Virus record (IMG/VR): IMGVR_UViG_2695421015_000001
Coordinates: 1-64,000 of that record
From: a virus
Taxonomy: Duplodnaviria > Caudoviricetes
Length of the DNA: 64,000 nt
Direction: 5' to 3' (one strand)
Below are positions 17,907-64,000 of the stretch, piece after piece. The translations under genes were made by a program, and so were the position numbers. The notes under the pieces were generated by a model. That model was not told where the DNA came from. It saw only the letters and a program-made list of their open reading frames with translations, and searched no databases. Positions within the stretch are counted from its first letter, which is position 1, and the number at the start of each line of letters is the position of its first letter.

Positions 17907-17980
17907 TGGCTGGGGAACTAGGATTCGAACCTAGACAAACAGAGTCAGAGTCTGTTGTGCTACCGTTACACCATTCCCCA
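17907..17980 (-). tRNA. tRNA-Gln (anticodon CTG)
   Basis: TGGGGAATGGTGTAACGGTAGCACAACAGACT-CTG-ACTCTGTTTGTCTAGGTTCGAATCCTAGTTCCCCAGCCA; full cloverleaf with encoded CCA. Confidence 0.97.
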
Positions 17981-17982
17981 CC

Positions 17983-18045
17983 GAAGTAGTTGATTTCATT
18001 CGGCTTTTTCCGAATTTCTTGCAAGGGTCAATATCTTTCTTGCAA
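17983..18045. promoter_or_regulatory. prophage att arm: two TTTCTTGCAA repeats and an IHF-like site
   Basis: Repeats at 18015-18024 and 18036-18045; minus-strand AATCAACTACTTC approximates WATCAANNNNTTR. Confidence 0.6.
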
Positions 18046-18091
18046 AACCAGCCACTCGCGACGTGGCTATAGCTGCCTGCGGGTTCACGGT

Positions 18092-19297
18092 CTAGTCCCC
18101 TTTGCCGACGATCTGGAGGCGCTTGCGACCGTCCTCGGCGACCTTCATCTGGTCCCGGAATCGCATGTAGTGGCCGACGTTCTGAGGGGTCATGCCGATG
18201 TCGTTGGCGATCTGGTCGACCTCATAGCCCTGCTCGGCACGGGCCAGGATGCCGGTGCCGCGCAGGCCATGGATGGTCGGGTGGTCGGCCTCTTCGGGGT
18301 CGATATCCCATTCGTACTTCTTGACCTGTGCGGTGACCCACTCCTTCCAGCGTTTGCAAATGACGCGGCCTTCCTCCGTTTCGGCGTACCAGCGACCCAA
18401 GCGAGCGCGGAGGCTGTCGGGCGTGTAGGGCCCGGCCTTCGGCGAATAAAGGTACAGATCCTCGCGGAAGCGCTCGATGGGTTTCAGCCACCGGCTGTTC
18501 GTGAACGTCACCGGCGTTTCCGCCCAGCGATCGAGTTCTAGCGCGTCGGCCGTTGTGAGCGGGATAAGGAAGGCGCGGCGGCGCTTGCGCGTCTTTTTCG
18601 GCCGGCACCAGATGCCGTTGCCGTCATCACGGTGTTCGGGGCCCATCCTGACCATGTCGCTCACGCGCTGGCACGTCATGATGCCGAGCCGCATCATCCG
18701 CACCAGGTCGGGCGTCGCGTGCAGGCGAAAGTATTCGACGACCCACGATGGCCATGGCACATGGCCGCGGTCCGGTATCTCGAGGTCCTTGATCTTCTCA
18801 AACGGGTTGAGCTTGACGATGCCGAGCGGGATACCCCAATCCCAGATGGTGCCACCCACCGAGAGCATCTGGTTCGCCATCACCGGCGTTTCCTTCATCG
18901 CATCGCGCAGCGTCTGGACGGCGATCGGCTCAAGGCCGCGCGCCGACAGCAGACCCCATCCCTCGCGGTCCTCGAAACGGCGCATATGAACTTCGTAGTT
19001 TGATTTCGTGCCATCGGAGTTCCGCTTGAACTCGTCGCTGTCGCGATACTGAGCGATCAGGTTGCCGATCGACCCGACGGGGCAGGGCGCCGTGCCGGCT
19101 TTCTTCAGCCGCTCAAGCTCGCGCGAGAACGCCACCAAATCCTTCTCAGGGTCCGGCAGCTTGATGCGGTCACTCTGGCGCTTGGTGCCGCGTCCGGGGT
19201 TCCAGTAATAATACTTGTAGGCTTTGCCCTTGTACCACTTGATGGATACTTCGACGCCTTCAGGCAGCTGCACGCCCGCTTCCCTTTTTCTTGGCAA
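18092..19297 (-). CDS. phage tyrosine integrase
   Basis: TCQRVSD, K, HGLR and Y catalytic motifs; arm-binding-like N-terminus YYYWNPGRG; TTG start inferred. Confidence 0.92.
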   Translation of the reverse strand: MPRKREAGVQLPEGVEVSIKWYKGKAYKYYYWNPGRGTKRQSDRIKLPDPEKDLVAFSRELERLKKAGTAPCPVGSIGNLIAQYRDSDEFKRNSDGTKSNYEVHMRRFEDREGWGLLSARGLEPIAVQTLRDAMKETPVMANQMLSVGGTIWDWGIPLGIVKLNPFEKIKDLEIPDRGHVPWPSWVVEYFRLHATPDLVRMMRLGIMTCQRVSDMVRMGPEHRDDGNGIWCRPKKTRKRRRAFLIPLTTADALELDRWAETPVTFTNSRWLKPIERFREDLYLYSPKAGPYTPDSLRARLGRWYAETEEGRVICKRWKEWVTAQVKKYEWDIDPEEADHPTIHGLRGTGILARAEQGYEVDQIANDIGMTPQNVGHYMRFRDQMKVAEDGRKRLQIVGKGD

Positions 19298-19562
19298 TGA
19301 ACTGCACTCCCTTGAGGTAGTCGGCGACGTTTGCGGTACCGGCAGCCTCCACTCGGCCAGAGAGTTTACGGTCAACATCCTCCCAGCGCCAGCGCGGCGC
19401 TCCGTTGGGGAAGCCGTCGCACGGAGGGGGTAGGCGGCCTTCCTTGACCCACTGGTCCCAGGTGTCGGCAGAGATTTGCAGCTCCGCGGCGCCGGTCTCC
19501 CGGCTAACATAGGCAGGTGTCCTGTCGCCGCGCAGCAGGTTTTCAGACTTACGAACAGTCAA
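19260..19562 (-). CDS. excisionase-like HTH protein
   Basis: YVSRETGAAELQISADTWDQWVKEGRLPPP..RWRWEDV; immediately upstream of int; RBS AAGGAGACC. Confidence 0.85.
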   Translation of the reverse strand: MTVRKSENLLRGDRTPAYVSRETGAAELQISADTWDQWVKEGRLPPPCDGFPNGAPRWRWEDVDRKLSGRVEAAGTANVADYLKGVQFIAKKKGSGRAAA

Positions 19563-56128: not shown

Positions 56129-57271
56129 TCAGATGTGGCAGTCGACGACGGCGAGGCAGGTATCGTCCGGCAGGCCGTCGATCAGGTCAGAGAACTGCTG
56201 GTCCCATGTGTCAGCGTCCTTCTCGTCGGAGACGCAGCCCCACCAGCCCATCGAGCCGCGCTCGTACCACTGACCGTCCTTGACGACGGCGAAGGTCTGC
56301 AACGCGCGGCGTCGCGCCCGGAGGGCAACGTCCTCCGGCGACATGCGGAACATCTTGAGGTCAGCATCGCTGTCGAAGAACGAGAGCATCTCGGCGGCCT
56401 TGAGGTCGACGATCACCGGCTGCGAGTGGAAGGCCTTGCGCACAGGTTCCCATCGATCGCCGCCGGCGGTGACGACGGCGTTATCCGTCGGCATCGCCTC
56501 GAAGCGGGCGCGAACCTCCTCCCACGTCTCGAACGGGCGACCGGCAATGATCGCTGCCGCCTTGGCGTGGGTTTCCAGTGTGGACTTCTCGGCCTCGTCG
56601 CGCATGGCGTCGAAGTCGATCTGGCGCTTGCGGGCGACGTCGCAGTAGCCGACCCGTTCCGGCTCGTTCTTGTTCGTCCATGAGCGTTCGCCCATCTGGA
56701 CGCCGTCGATCAGCGCCTTGGTGCTGTCGGGGATCGGAAGGCGTCGCTCGGTCAGGACCTGGACGTGACGCATGGCCTCGCAGACGTCGCCGCGCAGGCG
56801 GATCATGTCGCTCCACCGGCCGCCGATCTGCCACCAGTCCCATTTCTTTTTCGGGTTGGTCTTGTTGAAGAACCGGTCATCCCGCTCGAATGCGCCGAAA
56901 TAGTCCGTGGCGCACTCGGCCATGGTCTTGTAGCCGACGCCGTGCTTGCGCGCTTCATCAGCCGCCATCTCCTGCTCGACCGCGCCGGCCGGAAGTTCGA
57001 ACTCCTTGCGGGTGTCCCAGCTTGCCTTCTTCTCCGGCTCCTTCGTATAGAACCGCTGATCGTACCGACTGTGGACGCTGCCGTCCGCCAGCACGACGAC
57101 CTGCCTCGGTTTGTTGAACTCCTCCTTGACCTCGTCGGTGACGTCGACGTCGATGACGTATTGGTCATCGGTGCCGGTGCACTCGTACTCGTGCCACGGC
57201 TGGAGGATCGGGGTGAGGGTTTCCCGATCGAGCGCCTTGTCCGAGATAACGAGAACGGTGAAGTGACTCAT
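56129..57271 (-). CDS. Trp-rich hypothetical phage protein
   Basis: MSHFTVLVI...NPKKKWDWWQIGGRW...AVVKDGQWYERGSMGWWG...VVDCHI. Confidence 0.85.
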   Translation of the reverse strand: MSHFTVLVISDKALDRETLTPILQPWHEYECTGTDDQYVIDVDVTDEVKEEFNKPRQVVVLADGSVHSRYDQRFYTKEPEKKASWDTRKEFELPAGAVEQEMAADEARKHGVGYKTMAECATDYFGAFERDDRFFNKTNPKKKWDWWQIGGRWSDMIRLRGDVCEAMRHVQVLTERRLPIPDSTKALIDGVQMGERSWTNKNEPERVGYCDVARKRQIDFDAMRDEAEKSTLETHAKAAAIIAGRPFETWEEVRARFEAMPTDNAVVTAGGDRWEPVRKAFHSQPVIVDLKAAEMLSFFDSDADLKMFRMSPEDVALRARRRALQTFAVVKDGQWYERGSMGWWGCVSDEKDADTWDQQFSDLIDGLPDDTCLAVVDCHI

Positions 57272-57316
57272 AGTGGTGGTCTCCTTGGTCGATTGAGGAC
57301 TGCGATCCTCGTGGCG

Positions 57317-57368
57317 CGATGCGGAAGTGCATCGTGGAGCGCCGCGTGCGGCGCTCGTCGATGAACTC
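57317..57368 (-). promoter_or_regulatory. structured leader type 2, copy A
   Basis: Identical 19-mer GATGCGGAAGTGCATCGTG plus variable hairpin. Confidence 0.7.
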
Positions 57369-57588
57369 AAGCATGGTAGGAGGTGAAGCAGGTCTTGCTG
57401 CAGAACAGTCCGGGGTGGGTGAACTTGCGGCCGCCGTCGGTCTCGGTGGAGTACCGAAACATGGTGTTCTTGTCGGCGGTCTTGCCGCGATACGATCCGC
57501 ACCAGTCGCAGGAGTGCGCTGGAGCGAGGACGCTTTCGCGGTGAAGTTCTTGCCGCGCGAAGGGATCGCGGGAGATCAGGCGGGTCAT
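57367..57588 (-). CDS. zinc-finger-like hypothetical protein
   Basis: CDWCG...FCSKTC..YH. Confidence 0.7.
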   Translation of the reverse strand: MTRLISRDPFARQELHRESVLAPAHSCDWCGSYRGKTADKNTMFRYSTETDGGRKFTHPGLFCSKTCFTSYHA

Positions 57589-57821
57589 TGGCCCCTCCCT
57601 TCGCGATTGAGGCGGGCGACCTCGCGGCGGTAAACGGAGATGCCGGACTCGGGCATCGACAGCTTCGCGCCGCTCGGCGTCGGCAGGTATCCGACATAGC
57701 CGCGCATGTTGAACCAAAGCTGGTCCACGATCTTGCCGTTGAGGATCACGTCGTAGCGCTTCGTGGTCTCCAGCATCTGGCAACCGCGGCGCGTCTCTTT
57801 CAGTTCAAGCTTGAATGGCAT
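57585..57821 (-). CDS. hypothetical phage protein
   Basis: Leader module at 57852. Confidence 0.7.
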   Translation of the reverse strand: MPFKLELKETRRGCQMLETTKRYDVILNGKIVDQLWFNMRGYVGYLPTPSGAKLSMPESGISVYRREVARLNREGRGQ

Positions 57822-57895
57822 GGTTGGTCTCCTTGGTTTGAAAACGAAAGAGCGCGCTCGCTGCGAACGGCGCGCCCGTCGGGGATGGGTTGGTT

Positions 57896-58198
57896 TCAGC
57901 TATGGGTGTAGCCGTCGGGCTCGATGCCGAGCCACATGCCCCATCGGTGGATCATGATGCAGCCGTAGCCGCCGTGCACGGTCTTGCGGAAATTCCGGTA
58001 CTGGATCGACGGCACCTTGACGACGCGATGGGGATTGCGGACCGCGAAGTCAGCGAACTTTTCGGCGTCGTAAGGGTGGCCCTCGAAGTGGCGACGATCT
58101 TGCTCCTGCAGCCGGATCGTCGGTGTCAGCCAGCTTGGGAAGTCGCGGAGGAAGATTCGGAACAGCGCCTCGCGCTGCGCTCGGGTGGTGACGATCAT
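57896..58198 (-). CDS. hypothetical phage protein
   Basis: TRAQREAL...W.GMWLGIEPDGYTHS; leader module at 58218. Confidence 0.75.
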   Translation of the reverse strand: MIVTTRAQREALFRIFLRDFPSWLTPTIRLQEQDRRHFEGHPYDAEKFADFAVRNPHRVVKVPSIQYRNFRKTVHGGYGCIMIHRWGMWLGIEPDGYTHS

Positions 58199-58240
58199 GG
58201 TGGTGGTCTCCTTGAATGCCGTCTGCGAAACGGCGGTGGG

Positions 58241-58591
58241 TTAGTGGTTGATGGTCTCGGAAGCGTCCAGCACTTCCAGCACCTTGGCGGCGCCGATCTG
58301 GTCGATCTTGGTGGCGACGAGCATCTCGGCCGCCTCGCGGTCGGTCAGCTTGGCGTGATGGCCTTTCGCCACCATGTAGCGGACCTTCACGTCATTGAGC
58401 CGGCCGAACACCATGCCGGAGGCATAGTGCGTGAGGGTGTCGGCCTCCTTGCCGAGACGGCTTTGCTGCAACACGAACTTGACCTTGCGGTCGCCGATCG
58501 TGAGCCATGCGACGCGCCCGGTGCGTTCGGACAGCGTGATCTTATGGCCCCGGGGGCGTTTCCCCGGCACCTTGAAGGTGATGGTTGGCAT
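58241..58591 (-). CDS. hypothetical phage protein
   Basis: RBS GAGGG; LTHYASG. Confidence 0.7.
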   Translation of the reverse strand: MPTITFKVPGKRPRGHKITLSERTGRVAWLTIGDRKVKFVLQQSRLGKEADTLTHYASGMVFGRLNDVKVRYMVAKGHHAKLTDREAAEMLVATKIDQIGAAKVLEVLDASETINH

Positions 58592-58602
58592 GGTGCATTC
58601 CC

Positions 58603-59085
58603 TCAAAAGCCGCTGGCGAGTTGATGGGCTTCGGCGTCGGTCTTGCCGTCAAGTTTGTGCTTGGCGTAGGAGCGTTGCCATTTGACCCAGCTGCGGAGTT
58701 CGGCCGCCTCCGCCTCCTTGCAAGCAGACGCGAACACGAACAGCTCGTCGTCACGGCGCGGCTCCCACGCGCTTTGCGCGGCGAACATGCGGACCTTGGA
58801 GATCGCATCGCTCATGGTCATTGGCCTGGAGCCGAGCCCGTTCATCCACAGCGTCTTGCCGTGATGCTCGGTCGCCTTGCCGGGCTCGATGATCTGGTAG
58901 CACCACTCGCCGACCGGGCTCGCGGCCACGATCAGGGTGAGGCCCCATCGGAACTCGATGTGCGGCGCCTGCGCATTGCACAGGAAGTCGATCTTGTTCG
59001 AGAGGTCGAGTTTGGCCTCGTTCTTGTTCGGGCCTTCGCCGACGACGCAGCCGCGGCTTGTTGTGACGGTCTTGGGTTTACGCAT
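58603..59085 (-). CDS. hypothetical phage protein
   Basis: Leader module at 59103. Confidence 0.75.
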   Translation of the reverse strand: MRKPKTVTTSRGCVVGEGPNKNEAKLDLSNKIDFLCNAQAPHIEFRWGLTLIVAASPVGEWCYQIIEPGKATEHHGKTLWMNGLGSRPMTMSDAISKVRMFAAQSAWEPRRDDELFVFASACKEAEAAELRSWVKWQRSYAKHKLDGKTDAEAHQLASGF

Positions 59086-59128
59086 GGTGGTCTCCTTGTG
59101 ATGCGCTCGCTGCGAACGAGCGCGGGTT

Positions 59129-59668
59129 TCAGATGATCGAGCCGTAGCCTTTGCAGTCCGGACACTTGTCCCAGACCGGCGTGATGCCGTCGTCGCCTTT
59201 GCAGGTCTCGATGCCGTTGGATGCGACGTTGCCGAAATGCGTGGCGCAGGTCGGGCAGCCGTGGGTGTCGTTCCAGATCGTGGTCGCCTCGTCCTCGACG
59301 GCGATCAGCGCCGCGCCGTAAGCTTCGGCAGCCTGCTTGGGCGTCTCGAACTTTTCGTCGAGCAGGTCGATGACGTGGGTGGTAGTGGTCTGATCGACGC
59401 CTTCGACGATCGACGTCACTGACAGGGCGGTGAAGAAAGATCCTTCGACGGACAAATCCTCGCCCCACACCCAGCTGCCGGGGTTATCCTCACCGGCATA
59501 GAGCAGCGCGCCGACCGACGCGCCGCAGTCGGTGTACTTGTAGGCTTTGCGGGCGAGCTGCCCGACGTTGTCGGCGTCGTTCGCCTCAAGGATGGCGCGA
59601 AGGTTCTCTTGCGCGGCTTGCCCCATGGCTTTGAGCTCTTCGCCGCGTTCGTATTCGATTTCGTTCAT
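59129..59668 (-). CDS. hypothetical protein with DnaJ-like CxxCxGxG end
   Basis: YKYTDCGA...CPTC...CPDCKGYG; RBS AAGGAGTCC. Confidence 0.75.
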   Translation of the reverse strand: MNEIEYERGEELKAMGQAAQENLRAILEANDADNVGQLARKAYKYTDCGASVGALLYAGEDNPGSWVWGEDLSVEGSFFTALSVTSIVEGVDQTTTTHVIDLLDEKFETPKQAAEAYGAALIAVEDEATTIWNDTHGCPTCATHFGNVASNGIETCKGDDGITPVWDKCPDCKGYGSII

Positions 59669-59677
59669 GGTGGACTC

Positions 59678-60012
59678 CTTGGTTTGCCGATTGACGGCGG
59701 GCATGGGTGAATGAACCCGGGGCAGGCCCCCGGGGGCGGGGCAATAGAACCGGGGCAGGCCCGGGGGCAGGCCTAGAACCCGGGCAGGGAATAGAGGCCC
59801 GGGGGCAGGCCCGGGCAGGGGCAGGGAATAGAGGCCCGGGCAGGGGCAGGGGCCTAGGAACCGGGGCAGGGGCAGGCCCCTAGGCCCGGGCAGGCCCCTA
59901 GGCCATAGGCCCGGGCAGGCCCGGGGGGCAGGAATAGGGCCGAAACGGCCCTATTAGAACCCAAGCCCGAAACCAAACGAGGAGCGCCGCATAGCCCCTT
60001 GCGCGCGGCGAC
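59678..60012 (+). repeat. G-rich TC-free tract 2 (six GGGCAGGG plus shared hairpin)
   Basis: GGGCAGGG at 59782, 59813, 59819, 59838, 59844 and 59864; ATAGGGCCGAAACGGCCCTATT at 59934-59955. Confidence 0.85.
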
Positions 60013-60412
60013 TCGAGATGCGGTCGCGGATCGATCCGGCGTCGGCGAGGCCGCGCTCATGCAAATCGGTCAGCGTCTTGAGCGCGTCGGCGCGCGCCCG
60101 GGTGACGTAGACGGTCAGGGTCCGCTTGACGTGCGGCCCGAGTCCGACGGTCACGACCTGGCCCTCGGCGTTCACGCCATAGGTCCGCGCCTGCGCTCCC
60201 GTCCGGTGGCGGCTGCCGGGGTTGCGAATGTGCAGCGTGGTGACGACCCATCCGAAGCGCTCGGTCTCGTACAGGGTCAGGGTGTGCAGCACGTCGAACG
60301 GCTGCGGCTTGCGCCAGTCGTATTTCTTGGGGTGCTTCGGATATGCGGTGTCGGTCTCCTTGAGGCCGAAGGGCAGGGCGGGCTTGGTCGGCTTGCCGGT
60401 GGGGAACTTCAT
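59954..60412 (-). CDS. hypothetical phage protein
   Basis: Leader module at 60448. Confidence 0.75.
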   Translation of the reverse strand: MKFPTGKPTKPALPFGLKETDTAYPKHPKKYDWRKPQPFDVLHTLTLYETERFGWVVTTLHIRNPGSRHRTGAQARTYGVNAEGQVVTVGLGPHVKRTLTVYVTRARADALKTLTDLHERGLADAGSIRDRISSRRAQGAMRRSSFGFGLGF

Positions 60413-60567
60413 GGGTGGTCTCCTTGCGATGAATGTTGAAATGGAAGGCGCGCCCCGCTGCGAACGGGGCGCGCGCTGTCAGTCTCTCCGTGTGCCCAAC
60501 GTCACCATTGGGCATTCGCTCAGCGTAGTTCTGAGGCGCGGTCTCCTGTAGAGAGGCTGAAAGGTTG

Positions 60568-60816
60568 TCAGCGCGGATCGTAGAGCGGCTTGCTGTTGGG
60601 CTTCCACTCGGCGCCCGGCCAGACGCGGCCGTTGTAACTGACGTGGGCAATGATCTTGCCGGCGTCGTCGATGATCGTGCCGCCGGTGAACGGCGCGAGA
60701 CTCGAGCCGCAACCGGCGCCGAGGTCTCCGGTGTCGATGAAGCGACGCACCCTCTCGGATGCGTCGGCGTAGCTGGCGACCTTGACGGCGCGACTGCGGG
60801 TGAGATGAACTCGCAT
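60568..60816 (-). CDS. hypothetical phage protein
   Basis: RBS GGAGGG; IAHVSYNGRVW. Confidence 0.7.
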   Translation of the reverse strand: MRVHLTRSRAVKVASYADASERVRRFIDTGDLGAGCGSSLAPFTGGTIIDDAGKIIAHVSYNGRVWPGAEWKPNSKPLYDPR

Positions 60817-60819
60817 CGG

Positions 60820-61008
60820 TCAGCCCTCCATCCCGCAAGCGCGGTAGAAGAGGCTGGGCTTGAATTTGCCATTTGCGACGGCGCATTCGATTGCGAAGCG
60901 GCGCACGGTGTCGCGCCACTGGTCGAGTTGCTTCCGATCTTGCGTGTTGGGCTTGCCCTGCTTCAGCACGGCGGCGATGAACTGGAAGTGAGATTGGCTG
61001 ATGGACAT
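60820..61008 (-). CDS. hypothetical phage protein
   Basis: RBS GGAGG; HFQFIAAVL...N.KF...FYRACG. Confidence 0.7.
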   Translation of the reverse strand: MSISQSHFQFIAAVLKQGKPNTQDRKQLDQWRDTVRRFAIECAVANGKFKPSLFYRACGMEG

Positions 61009-61019
61009 GCTCGCCTCCC

Positions 61020-61181
61020 TCACTGCACGTTGACGCGAGGATGATCGGCGAGGCCGCGCCGCGTCAGGAACTCCTGATCGACAACGTAGCGGGTGTAGGG
61101 CTGCGGGCGATCTTCGACGTATTCGCGGAAGCGGCGGAGTTCATCTTGGCGGATCAGCTTGAGGATTTGCTTGCGTGACAT
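61020..61181 (-). CDS. 53-aa protein MSRKQILKLIR... (below ORF-track cutoff)
   Basis: Leader module at 61201 with AAGGAGACCACCATG. Confidence 0.7.
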   Translation of the reverse strand: MSRKQILKLIRQDELRRFREYVEDRPQPYTRYVVDQEFLTRRGLADHPRVNVQ

Positions 61182-61248
61182 GGTGGTCTCCTTTGGTTGG
61201 GGCCGCTGCGAACGGCCGGTGAAAAACAGGTGATGGGTTTGGTCGGGA

Positions 61249-61545
61249 TCAGGCGGAGAACACGACGGTTTCGCCGTCGATGGTGTGTGGCACCTTGCGG
61301 GTGACGAGTGCGGTGGCTGCGTCCAGCGGGAGCTTCCACGTCGCTGCGACGACGTTGGCGAGGTTCTTGCGATCCTTCGGGAAGCTGGCGCCGTTGATCG
61401 CCCAAGCGATCAGGCCGGGAGCGTAGACGAACGGCGACGATTGGAGGCGATAGGTCTTGGTGGCGGGGTAGCTCTGGATGAAGGTCTTGGCGGCGCGCTT
61501 GCTGCGGGTGTCGGCGAGGACAGCGGAAATTGCAGTCTTGGACAT
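61249..61545 (-). CDS. hypothetical phage protein
   Basis: AAGGAGACCACCATG; type-2 leader. Confidence 0.75.
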   Translation of the reverse strand: MSKTAISAVLADTRSKRAAKTFIQSYPATKTYRLQSSPFVYAPGLIAWAINGASFPKDRKNLANVVAATWKLPLDAATALVTRKVPHTIDGETVVFSA

Positions 61546-61562
61546 GGTGGTCTCCTTGGACT

Positions 61563-61614
61563 GATGCGGAAGTGCATCGTGACGCGGCGACATGCGCCGC
61601 GCTGCGATGGGCTC
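61563..61614 (-). promoter_or_regulatory. structured leader type 2, copy B
   Basis: Same 19-mer plus variable hairpin, 5 nt from the RBS. Confidence 0.7.
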
Positions 61615-61617
61615 CGA

Positions 61618-61920
61618 TCAGTCGCGTACCGGCCAGCCGCGCTCGGCGGCGAGCTTCTTGGCTTGGTCGATGACATCCATCGAGGGCAGGCGTCCTTCGA
61701 GGCATACGCAGAGCGCGACGCCGGCAGCCGGCGTATGCAGGTGGCCGCGCTCTTTCGTGACGGCGACGGGCCGTGTGTCGGCGATGCCGACAACCTTCTC
61801 CTTCTCGATCACGAGAATGTCCCCGGTCTCGACCGGGTACTCGCCGTCGAAGGCGAAGTGAATGCCGGTCTGACAGGCATCGTAGGCGTCGCCGCTGGTG
61901 GGGAATGTGTGGGTGCTCAT
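61618..61920 (-). CDS. hypothetical phage protein
   Basis: AYDACQ...GDILVIEKEKVVGIADT.PVAVT...GHLH; leader module at 61943. Confidence 0.75.
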   Translation of the reverse strand: MSTHTFPTSGDAYDACQTGIHFAFDGEYPVETGDILVIEKEKVVGIADTRPVAVTKERGHLHTPAAGVALCVCLEGRLPSMDVIDQAKKLAAERGWPVRD

Positions 61921-61970
61921 GGTGACGGTCTCCTTGGGTTGACGTTCTGCGAAAACGATGGGTGAGGGGA

Positions 61971-62276
61971 TCAGACGTATTCGATGGCGACGACGACGCC
62001 GGTGGTCATGAAGATTTCGGCGGCGTGGGCGCAGGCGATCTCCATGTCGGGGACGACCTCGCCGGCGACGACCAGCTTGATCGCCTTGCGCTCGGCCATG
62101 TCGATGCCGGTGCCGATCGCGTCGAGCAGGTTGGTCGCGTAGTAGGCGCTGGTCTCGGTCTTGGCGCCCTTGAAGTTGACGATGTACTCGCCGTCGACCG
62201 ACTTGATGGTCATGCCGTGCTTGGCCAGGATCGCGCGGGCTTGGTGGATCGTGTAGTTGGTTCTGGTTCCAGCCAT
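61971..62276 (-). CDS. hypothetical phage protein
   Basis: AAGGAGACCACCATG; type-2 leader. Confidence 0.75.
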   Translation of the reverse strand: MAGTRTNYTIHQARAILAKHGMTIKSVDGEYIVNFKGAKTETSAYYATNLLDAIGTGIDMAERKAIKLVVAGEVVPDMEIACAHAAEIFMTTGVVVAIEYV

Positions 62277-62292
62277 GGTGGTCTCCTTGGGT

Positions 62293-62344
62293 GATGCGGA
62301 AGTGCATCGTGGGACGGCGACATGCGCCGTCCGTCGATGAACTC
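62293..62344 (-). promoter_or_regulatory. structured leader type 2, copy C
   Basis: Same 19-mer plus variable hairpin, 4 nt from the RBS. Confidence 0.7.
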
Positions 62345-62347
62345 GGA

Positions 62348-62563
62348 TCAGTCGATGGTCTTGAAGCCGTGGCGGGCGGCCGCCGTCACGTCGCCGGTCT
62401 TGGCCATGCCGGACAGGTGCAGGCCGAACACCGCAGTGAAGCGGCCGTCGCGATTGCAGACGACCAGCGGCATCATCTGGTCGAGGCCCGTGGTCGCGAG
62501 TGCCTTCATCAGGTTCGCTTCGGTGGCGTAGCTCTTGGCGTTGTCGATATCGAGTATGCTCAT
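62348..62563 (-). CDS. hypothetical phage protein
   Basis: KSYATEANL.KAL...GRFTAVF. Confidence 0.7.
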   Translation of the reverse strand: MSILDIDNAKSYATEANLMKALATTGLDQMMPLVVCNRDGRFTAVFGLHLSGMAKTGDVTAAARHGFKTID

Positions 62564-62574
62564 GGCGGTCACTC

Positions 62575-62643
62575 TCACTTGCCGTTGCGGTAGCGCTGGA
62601 GTTCGAGCTTGCGGATCAGGGCGATGATTTGCTTGCGTGACAT
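62575..62643 (-). CDS. 22-aa basic peptide MSRKQIIALIRKLELQRYRNGK
   Basis: Has its own full leader module at 62680; paralogous to 61020-61181. Confidence 0.6.
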   Translation of the reverse strand: MSRKQIIALIRKLELQRYRNGK

Positions 62644-62726
62644 GGTGTGGTCTCCTTGATGGTTGGTGGTGGAATGAAAAGGCCCCGCTGCGAACGGGGC
62701 CTGTCGGGGATGGGATGGGGATTGGA

Positions 62727-63092
62727 TCAGCCGCGGCCGCGACCGCACTTCATCTTGCGCTTGCCGCCCTTGGCCTTGCCCTTTGTCGAGCGATAGCCCT
62801 TGCCGCTGTCCATCTCGCTCGCCCAGATCGCGTCATCGACCCGCACATGCTGCCTTTCGATGGCGTCAAACACGCGATAGCAGGCGTCAGAGAACTCGAG
62901 GTCCAGGTCGCGCAGCCTATCGAGTGCGGCGTCCCGGGCGTCGATATCCTTGTAAGTCTCGCAGGGCATCGCCTTGATGGCGCGGGCGGCGGCGAGGGAA
63001 GCGACCTCGCCGGCCTTCGTGGCTGCGCGGAAGGCGGCGTTCATCTTGGTTTCGGCTTTCTTGGCGGTGGCAATGATGGTCTGGACGTTCAT
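62727..63092 (-). CDS. hypothetical protein with basic C-terminal tail
   Basis: Leader module at 63125; ends KGKAKGGKRKMKCGRGRG. Confidence 0.7.
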   Translation of the reverse strand: MNVQTIIATAKKAETKMNAAFRAATKAGEVASLAAARAIKAMPCETYKDIDARDAALDRLRDLDLEFSDACYRVFDAIERQHVRVDDAIWASEMDSGKGYRSTKGKAKGGKRKMKCGRGRG

Positions 63093-63167
63093 GGGTGGTC
63101 TCCTTGAGTTGCAGGCATGAAAAAGGCCCGCTGCGAATGGGGCCGGTGATGGTCGGTGGTGGTGGGG

Positions 63168-63452
63168 TCAGCGGCGCAGGCTGGCGGGTCCGCCTTTGCC
63201 CTTGGGCGCCTCGCGCCAAACGTCGGGGTACTTGGCCATGATCGCTTTCTTGTTCTGGTAGAAGCCCTCGCAGGCGACGCGAAAGAACTCGACGCCGTCG
63301 CGGCAGAAGATCACGAAGGCGGTGTCGGGGATGGACCGGAACGATCCGGCGGTGCGGTAGCAGGCGTCCTCGCCAGCCATCGGGATGCTGTCCTTCGAGG
63401 TGACGAGTCTGCCGCGGTTCCAGATTTGGCAGATGGCAGTGAACTTGCTCAT
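63168..63452 (-). CDS. hypothetical phage protein
   Basis: AAGGAGACCACCATG. Confidence 0.7.
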   Translation of the reverse strand: MSKFTAICQIWNRGRLVTSKDSIPMAGEDACYRTAGSFRSIPDTAFVIFCRDGVEFFRVACEGFYQNKKAIMAKYPDVWREAPKGKGGPASLRR

Positions 63453-63500
63453 GGTGGTCTCCTTGTGTGAGGTAGGGTGGAAGATCAGGGTGATGGTGGA

Positions 63501-63704
63501 TCAGCAGAGCGCGGAAGCAACGCAGTGCGCGTTTTCCCAGACGTTGCGGCAATCGGCGAGGCGGAGTTGATCCGCGATCACCTTGCGGATGTGCGTCTTG
63601 CTGTGCGTCTTGGGGCAGCACTTTTTGTAGAAGTTGTTTTTGAGCAGCGCCTGTTCGACGTTATCGATGCGGCGCTTGCTGATGGCGGTGGTCTTGGTAG
63701 CCAT
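63501..63704 (-). CDS. small basic Cys-containing protein
   Basis: AAGGAGACCACCATG. Confidence 0.65.
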   Translation of the reverse strand: MATKTTAISKRRIDNVEQALLKNNFYKKCCPKTHSKTHIRKVIADQLRLADCRNVWENAHCVASALC

Positions 63705-64000
63705 GGTGGTCTCCTTGGTTTGGGTTGCTTAGATCGGAGCGTCGCTATGCGGCGCTCCGAGCTAAGCCCGCGCCCATGCTGCGACATGGGCGGGGTTAGC
63801 TGGCCGCGCGGCTTAATGGAGCCGCGCGATCTCAGTGCATCTCTCTTCCTGTTCGGTACTGCGGCCCGGTATTCGGCAATCCTGCGCGGCTACTACGGTC
63901 ACGATGGACATTCGCCGGCGGCGTCTATGGCGCGCTCTTGGATGTTAGCCTATTGGCGCGGCCCGCCTTGCTAGAGCGGCGCGTCAAAACCTTATCGGCA

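Follow-up and report, generated by a model that had tools for sequence, protein, structure and literature searches.

In the accessory regions of phages, small genes of unknown function follow one another in long series, and the way in which expression is controlled at the junctions between them is poorly understood. A stretch of 64,000 nucleotides (nt) from a virus of the Caudoviricetes, positions 1 to 64,000 of IMG/VR record IMGVR_UViG_2695421015_000001 (the window), raises this question in a specific form: at three of its gene junctions two short conserved boxes enclose a variable hairpin, and one strand of the 3' box is complementary to two different partners. What is this element, and does it act as DNA, as RNA or simply as a point of recombination? 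The answer developed here is that it is a conserved, portable intercistronic mRNA element with two competing folds that are under compensatory change, anchored to the stop codon of the upstream gene. Less certain is how the folds are selected, and for this step a terminating ribosome is tentatively proposed.

The three copies had been picked out by an earlier reading of the DNA without database searches (the sequence-only reading), and they are readily recovered. The 19-mer CACGATGCACTTCCGCATC matches the window exactly three times, on the minus strand only (57318-57336, 61563-61581 and 62293-62311), against 0.06 matches expected by chance and none of 100 shuffles reaching three, and the whole 9,092,136-bp genome holds no match at up to two mismatches beyond these. 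In the mRNA sense the module consists of a 5' box, AGUUCAUCGAC, a variable GC hairpin and a 3' box, CACGAUGCACUUCCGCAUC. The 5' parts are as first described, GAGUUCAUCGAC in copies A and C and GAGCCCAUCGCA in copy B, so that copy A (57368-57318) reads GAGUUCAUCGAC-GAGCGCCG-CACG-CGGCGCUC-CACGAUGCACUUCCGCAUC, copy B (61614-61563) GAGCCCAUCGCA-GCGCGGCG-CAUGU-CGCCGCGU-CACGAUGCACUUCCGCAUC and copy C (62344-62293) GAGUUCAUCGAC-GGACGGCG-CAUGU-CGCCGUCC-CACGAUGCACUUCCGCAUC. Covariation of the middle stems, GAGCGCCG/CGGCGCUC in A, GCGCGGCG/CGCCGCGU in B and GGACGGCG/CGCCGUCC in C, had been claimed and is seen as written, copies B and C being two compensatory double substitutions apart. A covariance model built from 14 copies and run over the window with filters off finds three sense sites (56-70 bits) together with their weak antisense echoes only, the next-best match scoring 10.9 bits (E = 1.4). 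The predicted fold of all three junctions is a long hairpin, with z-scores of -2.9 to -3.5. The copies and their parts, named as defined below, are as follows.

57318..57368, minus strand: copy A, 69.9 bits with the covariance model; the minimum-energy fold is the long hairpin, -41.1 kcal/mol, z = -2.89
57367-57359, minus strand: copy A, 5' strand of helix P1a and segment X in the mRNA sense
57358-57357, minus strand: copy A, internal loop
57356-57337, minus strand: copy A, variable hairpin P3 of 8 bp with loop CACG
57336-57318, minus strand: copy A, 19-mer, containing segments Y (57334-57329) and Z (57322-57318)
57328-57326, minus strand: copy A, part of the Y:Z loop that doubles as the 3' strand of P1a
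61563..61614, minus strand: copy B, 56.5 bits, fold -43.4 kcal/mol, z = -3.49
61602-61582, minus strand: copy B, P3, GCGCGGCG/CGCCGCGU with a G.U pair at its base, followed by the 19-mer at 61581-61563
62293..62344, minus strand: copy C, 69.0 bits, fold -32.2 kcal/mol, z = -3.04
62332-62312, minus strand: copy C, P3, GGACGGCG/CGCCGUCC, followed by the 19-mer at 62311-62293

The two folds are best described with the 5' box numbered A1 G2 U3 U4 C5 A6 U7 C8 G9 A10 C11 and the 3' box numbered C1' A2' C3' G4' A5' U6' G7' C8' A9' C10' U11' U12' C13' C14' G15' C16' A17' U18' C19', which defines three segments, X (C5-G9), Y (C3'-C8') and Z (G15'-C19'). Read from its base upwards, the long hairpin consists of helix P1a (A1-U11', G2-C10', U3-A9'; AGU with ACU), a mismatch of position 4 with C8', helix P1b, in which X (CAUCG) pairs with CGAUG of Y (C5-G7' through G9-C3'), a small internal loop and P3, whose stem sequence is variable; the element as a whole measures 55-70 nt. 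In the small hairpin it is Z that pairs with Y (G4'-C19', A5'-U18', U6'-A17', G7'-C16' and C8'-G15'). The sequence-only reading had proposed that CAUCG/CGAUG and GAUGC/GCAUC are mutually exclusive pairings, and across relatives both are kept by compensatory changes, as is expected of a bistable RNA switch. On an alignment of 44 rows (A5), 99.5% of 570 long-hairpin cells are paired, compared with 21-50% for slid-partner controls, and 10 of the 13 pairs show changes on both sides (86 cells), which none of 500 shuffles reaches. The pair G9:C3' also occurs as C:G, A:U, U:A and G.U, G2:C10' as U:A and A:U, and U3:A9' as C:G. For the small Y:Z hairpin the same alignment gives 96.7% of 215 cells paired and a covariation score of 0.149 versus 0.047 when shuffled (0/500). 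This helix is no part of the covariance model, and a search for it sequence by sequence finds five of five pairs in 40 of 40 sense copies, through four Y cores (GAUGC, GGAGC, GAAGC and GGUGC).

The segments change together. Most copies combine CAUCG, CGAUGC and GCAUC as X, Y and Z, with variants that carry U at X position 5; a second type has UUCCG or CUCCC, CGGAGC or GGGAGC, and GCUCC; the others are UUUCG/CGAAGC/GCUUC and CACCA/UGGUGC/GCACC, and different types coexist within one phage. In ten rows X has U5, which forms a wobble pair with G7', while Z retains C16'. The selected property is therefore complementarity to Y and not identity between X and Z, and this divergence argues for pairing rather than for a repeated protein site. 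The conservation of the boxes would follow from the three-way constraint on Y, with no need of a sequence-specific factor. One strand that stays complementary to two partners through four cores is unusually clear comparative evidence for two folds.

The same data bear on an action at the level of DNA, either as a double-stranded operator of the form GATGC-N6-GCATC, which the sequence-only reading had offered as its alternative, or as a single-stranded hairpin in replication or recombination. The sequence is a quasi-palindrome whose antisense strand in the window scores 16-30 bits with the model and folds as stably as the sense strand. The spacer of the supposed operator is not fixed, however, being 6 nt in 34 of the 40 copies, 5 in four, 7 in one and 10 in one, and its half-sites covary with a third segment across a hairpin of variable length; the two boxes flank a hairpin of 20-45 nt, so that the distance along a duplex is not fixed either. 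Placement between stop codon and RBS (ribosome-binding site) and constant co-orientation with the genes fit an mRNA, and the wobble pairs of X (17 G.U cells in the long-hairpin test on A5) would be A.C mismatches on the other strand. The operator proposal was thus set aside, and any action as DNA appears very improbable.

Where else the element occurs was asked with covariance-model and pattern scans, the search for further copies that the sequence-only reading had recommended, and 40 sense-strand copies were found in all, spread over eight viral and nine metagenome contigs and a further genome of the same genus. The model from 14 copies finds one to five copies in each of eight viral records, divergent ones included. 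Viral loci of the same architecture (L020, L021, L022, L031, L041 with two copies, L093, L128, L192 and L194) have the two boxes on either side of a GC hairpin that is unrelated and differs in length, with an RBS and start codon next. Exact-pattern scans of viral sequence also gave many chance or coding matches, as the 17-mer of the element can encode RMHFRI, and the same 17-mer is found as coding sequence in many unrelated genomes. The pattern scan of metagenomes gave 11 loci, of which nine have the architecture and one has three copies in 2.4 kb. The 185,579 species representatives (one genome each) contain 16 matching loci, all of them coding or chance and none with a hairpin; 60 related genomes contain no match at up to two mismatches in a hairpin context; and of 150 other genomes of the genus only G102 carries the element, in two good copies and a third that is degenerate. 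In that genome (locus L259, G102:C47:27486-30544; minus strand, 1501-1559, 2875-2934 and 1191-1243) the core is UUUCG/CGAAGC/GCUUC with an extra small hairpin before the RBS, and in the third copy X and Y are present and Z is not recognisable. A near-perfect palindromic relative (AGUGCAUCA ... UGAUGCACU) at L223 1304-1368, on which both strands score about equally and no clear Z is seen, may be a degenerate or ancestral form. Among GenBank phages a 7-kb megablast query matched nothing, and with copy C as blastn query the matches, all in tail genes of mycobacteriophages, were GC-rich and due to chance.

Five of the viral records, taken whole, form one group of 69-79-kb myoviruses that encode a tail sheath, portal, terminase and their own DNA polymerase, primase and helicases, and their copies sit in a region of small open reading frames (ORFs) just downstream of the DNA polymerase gene. 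The window prophage and these contigs have one protein in common, of 148 aa and found in one contig, and on this basis the element is considered to be common to unrelated phages. A trans-acting factor common to the carriers was considered and rejected, the sole common protein having no Pfam family.

Within the operons the position of the element is constant, between stop codon and RBS. Flanking ORFs were sought for 38 copies and called upstream for 33 and downstream for 34. From the end of the stop codon to A1 the distance is -2 to +5 nt in 29 of the 33 copies, and in 20 the stop overlaps or abuts A1 (distance of zero or less), either as a UAG whose AG is A1G2 or as a UGA or UAA whose A is A1. 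Mere genome compaction does not account for this, since the stop codon is 2-56 nt away (median 13) for the hairpins with a UUCGCAG loop in this prophage, and in none of 29 is it within 1 nt. All copies with called flanking ORFs are co-oriented with them, and the downstream proteins are mostly unrelated to one another. Upstream of copies B and C, ORFs that are otherwise unrelated have an identical last sense codon, stop and next bases (CGACUGAUC).

This last feature, together with the behaviour of the copies in related phages, raises the possibility that the element is first of all a portable recombination junction, in which the boxes provide homology for small-gene shuffling, the hairpin is a passive insulator or stabiliser and the two states have no regulatory role. 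In a comparison of two related myovirus contigs, one block of homology opens 7 nt ahead of a copy, another copy stands as 74 nt of isolated homology with unrelated sequence on either side, and one copy lies within a 2.6-kb replacement. The element marks recombination boundaries between gene cassettes, and this would explain its presence in unrelated phages. PeSLs span stop codon to start codon and mediate small-gene shuffling in T4-like phages, at least in the parts of their descriptions considered (PMC2839356, PMC4122927), and a counterpart of them would agree with the location in small-ORF regions downstream of the DNA polymerase gene, with the single protein common to the window prophage and the myoviruses and with the shared last codon and stop of copies B and C. 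Homology, however, needs neither the covariation of Z with Y through four core types nor the compensatory changes in P1, which indicate selection on the fold, and unlike a PeSL the element has no sigma-70-like promoter and no U-tract terminator. As the whole explanation, recombination is therefore quite unlikely.

If the fold is under selection, the question is what chooses between its two forms. The three window junctions are predicted to form the long hairpin, and window RNAs that are cut to remove X are predicted to form the GAUGC/GCAUC hairpin. Barring X from pairing in 34 copies has a predicted mean cost of 4.1 kcal/mol and raises the probability of Y:Z, taken as the G4':C19' pair, from 0.25 to 0.87, and in several copies the small hairpin is predicted to be well populated even without the constraint; the folds are thus close in energy by prediction, as in a bistable switch. 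The output initially envisaged was masking of the RBS, on the ground that UUCC in the loop of the small hairpin is complementary to the GGAG that follows. This does not hold among relatives, in which UUCC is replaced by UUAC, UCAU, UAUC, UCCC or UUCU and the RBS may start as little as 2 or as much as 31 nt after Z, and the predicted accessibility of the RBS is equal in both folds.

An explanation that uses the position of the element is that of an intercistronic RNA toggle flipped by the terminating ribosome, which is tentatively preferred although its probability is put somewhat below even. The boundary of the ribosomal helicase lies several nucleotides beyond the A site, and a ribosome at the upstream stop codon would cover X and exclude X:Y at that moment. 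Y would then pair with Z at a predicted net cost of about 4 kcal/mol, and once the ribosome departs X could re-invade with the loop of the Y:Z hairpin, which is the 3' strand of P1a, as its foothold; the unpaired C8' and the loop nucleotides A9'C10'U11' may be the footholds that let each fold displace the other. Termination of translation in the upstream gene would set the state of the toggle. The output would not be masking of the RBS and would more probably be the fate of the junction (RNase access, protection of the mRNA end, or hand-over of the ribosome versus insulation), the step with the least support, and effects on transcription are a further candidate. In the portion of a review that was considered (PMC12548453), structure just after the stop codon is said to be correlated negatively with coupling. 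In its fullest form, the proposal is of a nearly isoenergetic three-segment toggle with the stop codon in its base, whose fold is flipped by each termination event, which passes the translation state of the upstream gene to the next junction as RNase access, hand-over or insulation and which moves between unrelated phages as a stop-to-RBS cassette; in this entirety it is doubtful. If the ribosome does set the fold, this would be a natural case of translation-state sensing between full-length cistrons without masking of the RBS, and a part for synthetic operons.

Several points weigh against the ribosome-flipped toggle and the comparative case on which it builds. The copies in A5 are related and its cells overstate the number of independent events; the alignment was also fitted to the long-hairpin model, and among its rows are two antisense echoes of window copies and two that come from the one palindromic L223 site. 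The energies are nearest-neighbour predictions. No output is visible at the RBS, the mean unpaired probability of the stretch from RBS to start codon being predicted as 0.59 in the free RNA and 0.62 with X masked, which is also not the behaviour of a translational-coupling hairpin of the RNA-unfolding type. The stop codon is 10-18 nt away in four of the 33 copies, no upstream ORF is called in five of the 38, and the two good copies of G102 have stops about 8 and about 17 nt upstream. Adjacency to the stop could moreover have another origin, namely a stop codon that travels as part of the recombining unit. Lastly, sense and antisense long hairpins are about equally stable (the sense better in 15 of 38), so that the acting strand is deduced from the stop-to-RBS placement and the wobble pairs and not from fold energies.

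The main rival to the toggle is an RNase III-type module of intercistronic processing, which is unlikely but would account for several of the same features. The sequence-only reading had named a processing site and a protein-controlled switch among its options, and both are retained as candidates. The early operons of phage T7 contain several intergenic RNase III sites, hairpins of about 20 bp in which an internal loop separates the upper from the lower stem, and hairpins at 5' ends are known to protect mRNA. Here, cleavage would fall in the internal loop of an interrupted helix some 19-21 bp long. P3 would stay with the upstream mRNA as a protective 3' hairpin, and at the new 5' end of the downstream mRNA Y and Z would pair, so that this mRNA starts in a hairpin, with an overhang of 1-3 nt, that shields it from 5'-end-dependent decay. 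The architecture fits: above the small internal loop stands a stem of 8-10 bp whose sequence is free to vary, and below it one of 8-9 bp. Z is never missing and starts pairing 3 nt past that loop, and the model would explain it as the hairpin formed after the cut; several copies occur per early or accessory operon; and a universal host enzyme would account for function in unrelated phages. Variation in the length of P3, with some upper stems much longer or interrupted, would however shift a measured cut, the stop codon in the base of the helix is left unexplained, and RNase III needs little primary sequence, though the three-way pairing alone could explain the conservation. Should the module prove to be a processing site, mRNA punctuation in the style of T7 would reach as far as temperate and lytic phages of soil-type metagenomes.

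A signal to the transcription machinery is a further reading, in the form of an antitermination site like nut or put or of a hairpin that checks polarity, pausing or terminating RNA polymerase unless a ribosome close behind keeps it from forming. The operon in which the element lies, about 45 small genes read in one direction, is long and needs processive transcription, and pairings selected by the position of a ribosome follow the logic of leader attenuators, as far as the part of the review considered describes it (PMC12548453). Against this, neither hairpin has a U-tract and the terminator scan does not call them, the loop and stem sequences of P3 are not conserved in the way of boxB or put, no boxA-like element was noticed, and up to five copies occur per phage, each tied to an ORF junction; such a role is very unlikely, about on a par with action as DNA. 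An intrinsic terminator as such was rejected, as there is no U-tract in the tails (CACGAUGCACUU... after P3, and ACCCAAGG, AGUCCAAGG or GCGCCACG after Z) and the scan lists none of the three sites. A promoter was rejected on finding no promoter-like site in 56900-64000, and a promoter for a phage polymerase is unlikely, since the large ORFs that were examined in the related myovirus contigs include no phage RNA polymerase. Hairpin promoters of the N4 type, considered for the contigs of about 70 kb with terminal repeats, were dismissed as well: no ORF for a giant virion polymerase is present, the largest being 763-977 aa. The attC sites of integrons have R'' and R' boxes (RYYYAAC ... GTTRRRY) and a nearby IntI integrase. 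The boxes of the element read AGUUCAUCGAC and CGAUGCACU, and it also occurs in myovirus contigs of lytic type, so this identity was discarded too.

A riboswitch or self-cleaving ribozyme, also suggested by the sequence-only reading, would agree with a conserved, structured leader that has two folds. The fold is, however, a plain hairpin without junction or pseudoknot, its few unpaired positions vary, leaving no conserved core or ligand pocket, and the downstream genes are mutually unrelated and define no functional class. The comparison with Rfam 15 that had been recommended gives only a tRNA above the gathering threshold in the whole window, and in 57000-62700 nothing overlaps the element even at E <= 10. 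This reading is accordingly the least probable of all, with next to no likelihood. The absence of the family from Rfam 15 makes the element a candidate new RNA family and a candidate marker for the boundaries of phage cassettes.

The setting of the three copies is an island that is identified as a prophage by an integrase beside a tRNA at about 18 kb together with a RecE-like exonuclease, a primase-helicase and other phage-type genes. The tRNA gene (minus strand) directly adjoins the 472-aa integrase (window 17910-19510) at the low-coordinate end of the island. About 45 small minus-strand genes, each with the RBS AAGGAGACC, occupy two stretches, one between about 63.9 and 38.5 kb and one between 26 and 19 kb; the promoter-proximal end of the operon, at about 63.9 kb, is near the end of the window. 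Most of these genes are preceded by a hairpin with a (U)UCGCAG loop, of which 32 lie in window 19591-63792 on the minus strand, with variable stems and each 4-23 nt 5' of an RBS; the island holds 33 of the 106 such hairpins in the genome. These hairpins were not seen in the viral contigs that carry the two-fold element. Replacement of the UUCGCAG hairpin by the element in copies B and C had been noted and is confirmed, as is the spacing of 5 nt (B) and 4 nt (C) between the element and AAGGAG; copy A precedes such a hairpin. The features around the copies are listed below.

57295..57310, minus strand: GAGGA-UCGCAG-UCCUC hairpin between copy A and its RBS, of the other, prophage-wide leader type
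57367..57585, minus strand: small ORF upstream of copy A, whose stop UGA (57369-57367) supplies A1, the first paired base; stop-to-A1 distance -1
56129..57271, minus strand: gene downstream of copy A, 380 aa, PHROG 10079, function unknown
61618..61920, minus strand: ORF upstream of copy B, 100 aa; its stop ends 4 nt before A1
61249..61545, minus strand: ORF downstream of copy B, 98 aa; its RBS, AAGGAGACC, begins 5 nt after Z
62348..62578, minus strand: ORF upstream of copy C, 76 aa; its stop ends 4 nt before A1
61971..62276, minus strand: ORF downstream of copy C, 101 aa; its RBS begins 4 nt after Z

A Pfam search of the small proteins that flank the element found no family. Full-length homologues of the 380-aa PHROG 10079 protein, with 30-35% identity, occur in 51 GenBank phage records that cover many hosts and include jumbo phages; of 300 other genomes in the genus, only two were found to carry it. 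On the minus strand, long out-of-frame ORFs (MHFRI...; window 61618-62307 and 57165-57374) start at the AUG within Y and appear to be artefacts of the conserved box. Two minus-strand hairpins of the UUCGCAG kind, at 60448-60474 and 62680-62702, combine long GC stems with a T-rich tail and appear terminator-like in the consensus scan. A weak match to the Rfam family Streptomyces-metH (60410-60532, minus strand; 29.8 bits against a gathering threshold of 50, E = 0.028) rests on a UUCGCAG hairpin and RBS and is most likely not a member.

Among known systems, the nut sites of lambda (boxA/boxB) and the put sites of HK022 bind N or RNA polymerase through conserved loops and bulges and occur once or twice per genome after promoters. 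The element resembles them as a cis-acting RNA hairpin in phage early operons, and unlike them its loop and stem are free to vary and its copies lie at ORF junctions. In the CI RNA of phage P4, a processed RNA that acts in trans and causes termination, seqA, seqB and seqC show a similar logic, one sequence being complementary to two others on either side. For the present element, in contrast, covariation within each copy and the presence of differing core types in one phage indicate pairing in cis, and the Rfam family C4 does not match it. The T7 RNase III sites share its shape and helix geometry, and with these it would be compatible in geometry only; the conserved third segment that competes for the lower stem sets it apart. 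Leader attenuators of the trp type combine exclusive helices that are chosen by ribosome position with a leader peptide and a terminator. The translational-coupling model of RNA unfolding likewise has exclusive helices and a choice set by the place of the ribosome on the 5' segment, as described in the part of the source considered (PMC12548453). The element differs from both attenuators and coupling hairpins in having no leader peptide, terminator or RBS sequestration and in lying between full-length cistrons with the stop codon in the base of its helix.

The closest resemblance in organisation is to the PeSL cassettes of T4-like phages, which according to the sections of the literature considered are also a repeated composite motif that runs from stop codon to the next RBS between small orphan genes of plastic regions (PMC2839356, PMC4122927). 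As in PeSLs, the breakpoints of homology between related phages fall at the element, a repeated stop-to-start motif between orphan genes. PeSLs hold a sigma-70 promoter and an effective terminator, as far as those descriptions go (PMC2839356, PMC4122927), whereas the element has no promoter-like site or U-tract; its sole stretch conserved at fixed distance is the 19 nt, and its conserved content is a three-segment competing RNA fold. A literature search by box sequence and keyword found no description of the motif, the supplements of the PeSL papers lying outside that search. The closest known kinds are thus the PeSL in context and shuffling, the attenuator or coupling hairpin in logic and the T7 RNase III site in shape. 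The element lacks a defining feature of the PeSL and of the attenuator or coupling hairpin, and it is best placed among the portable regulatory junction cassettes of phages, with an unusual RNA content.

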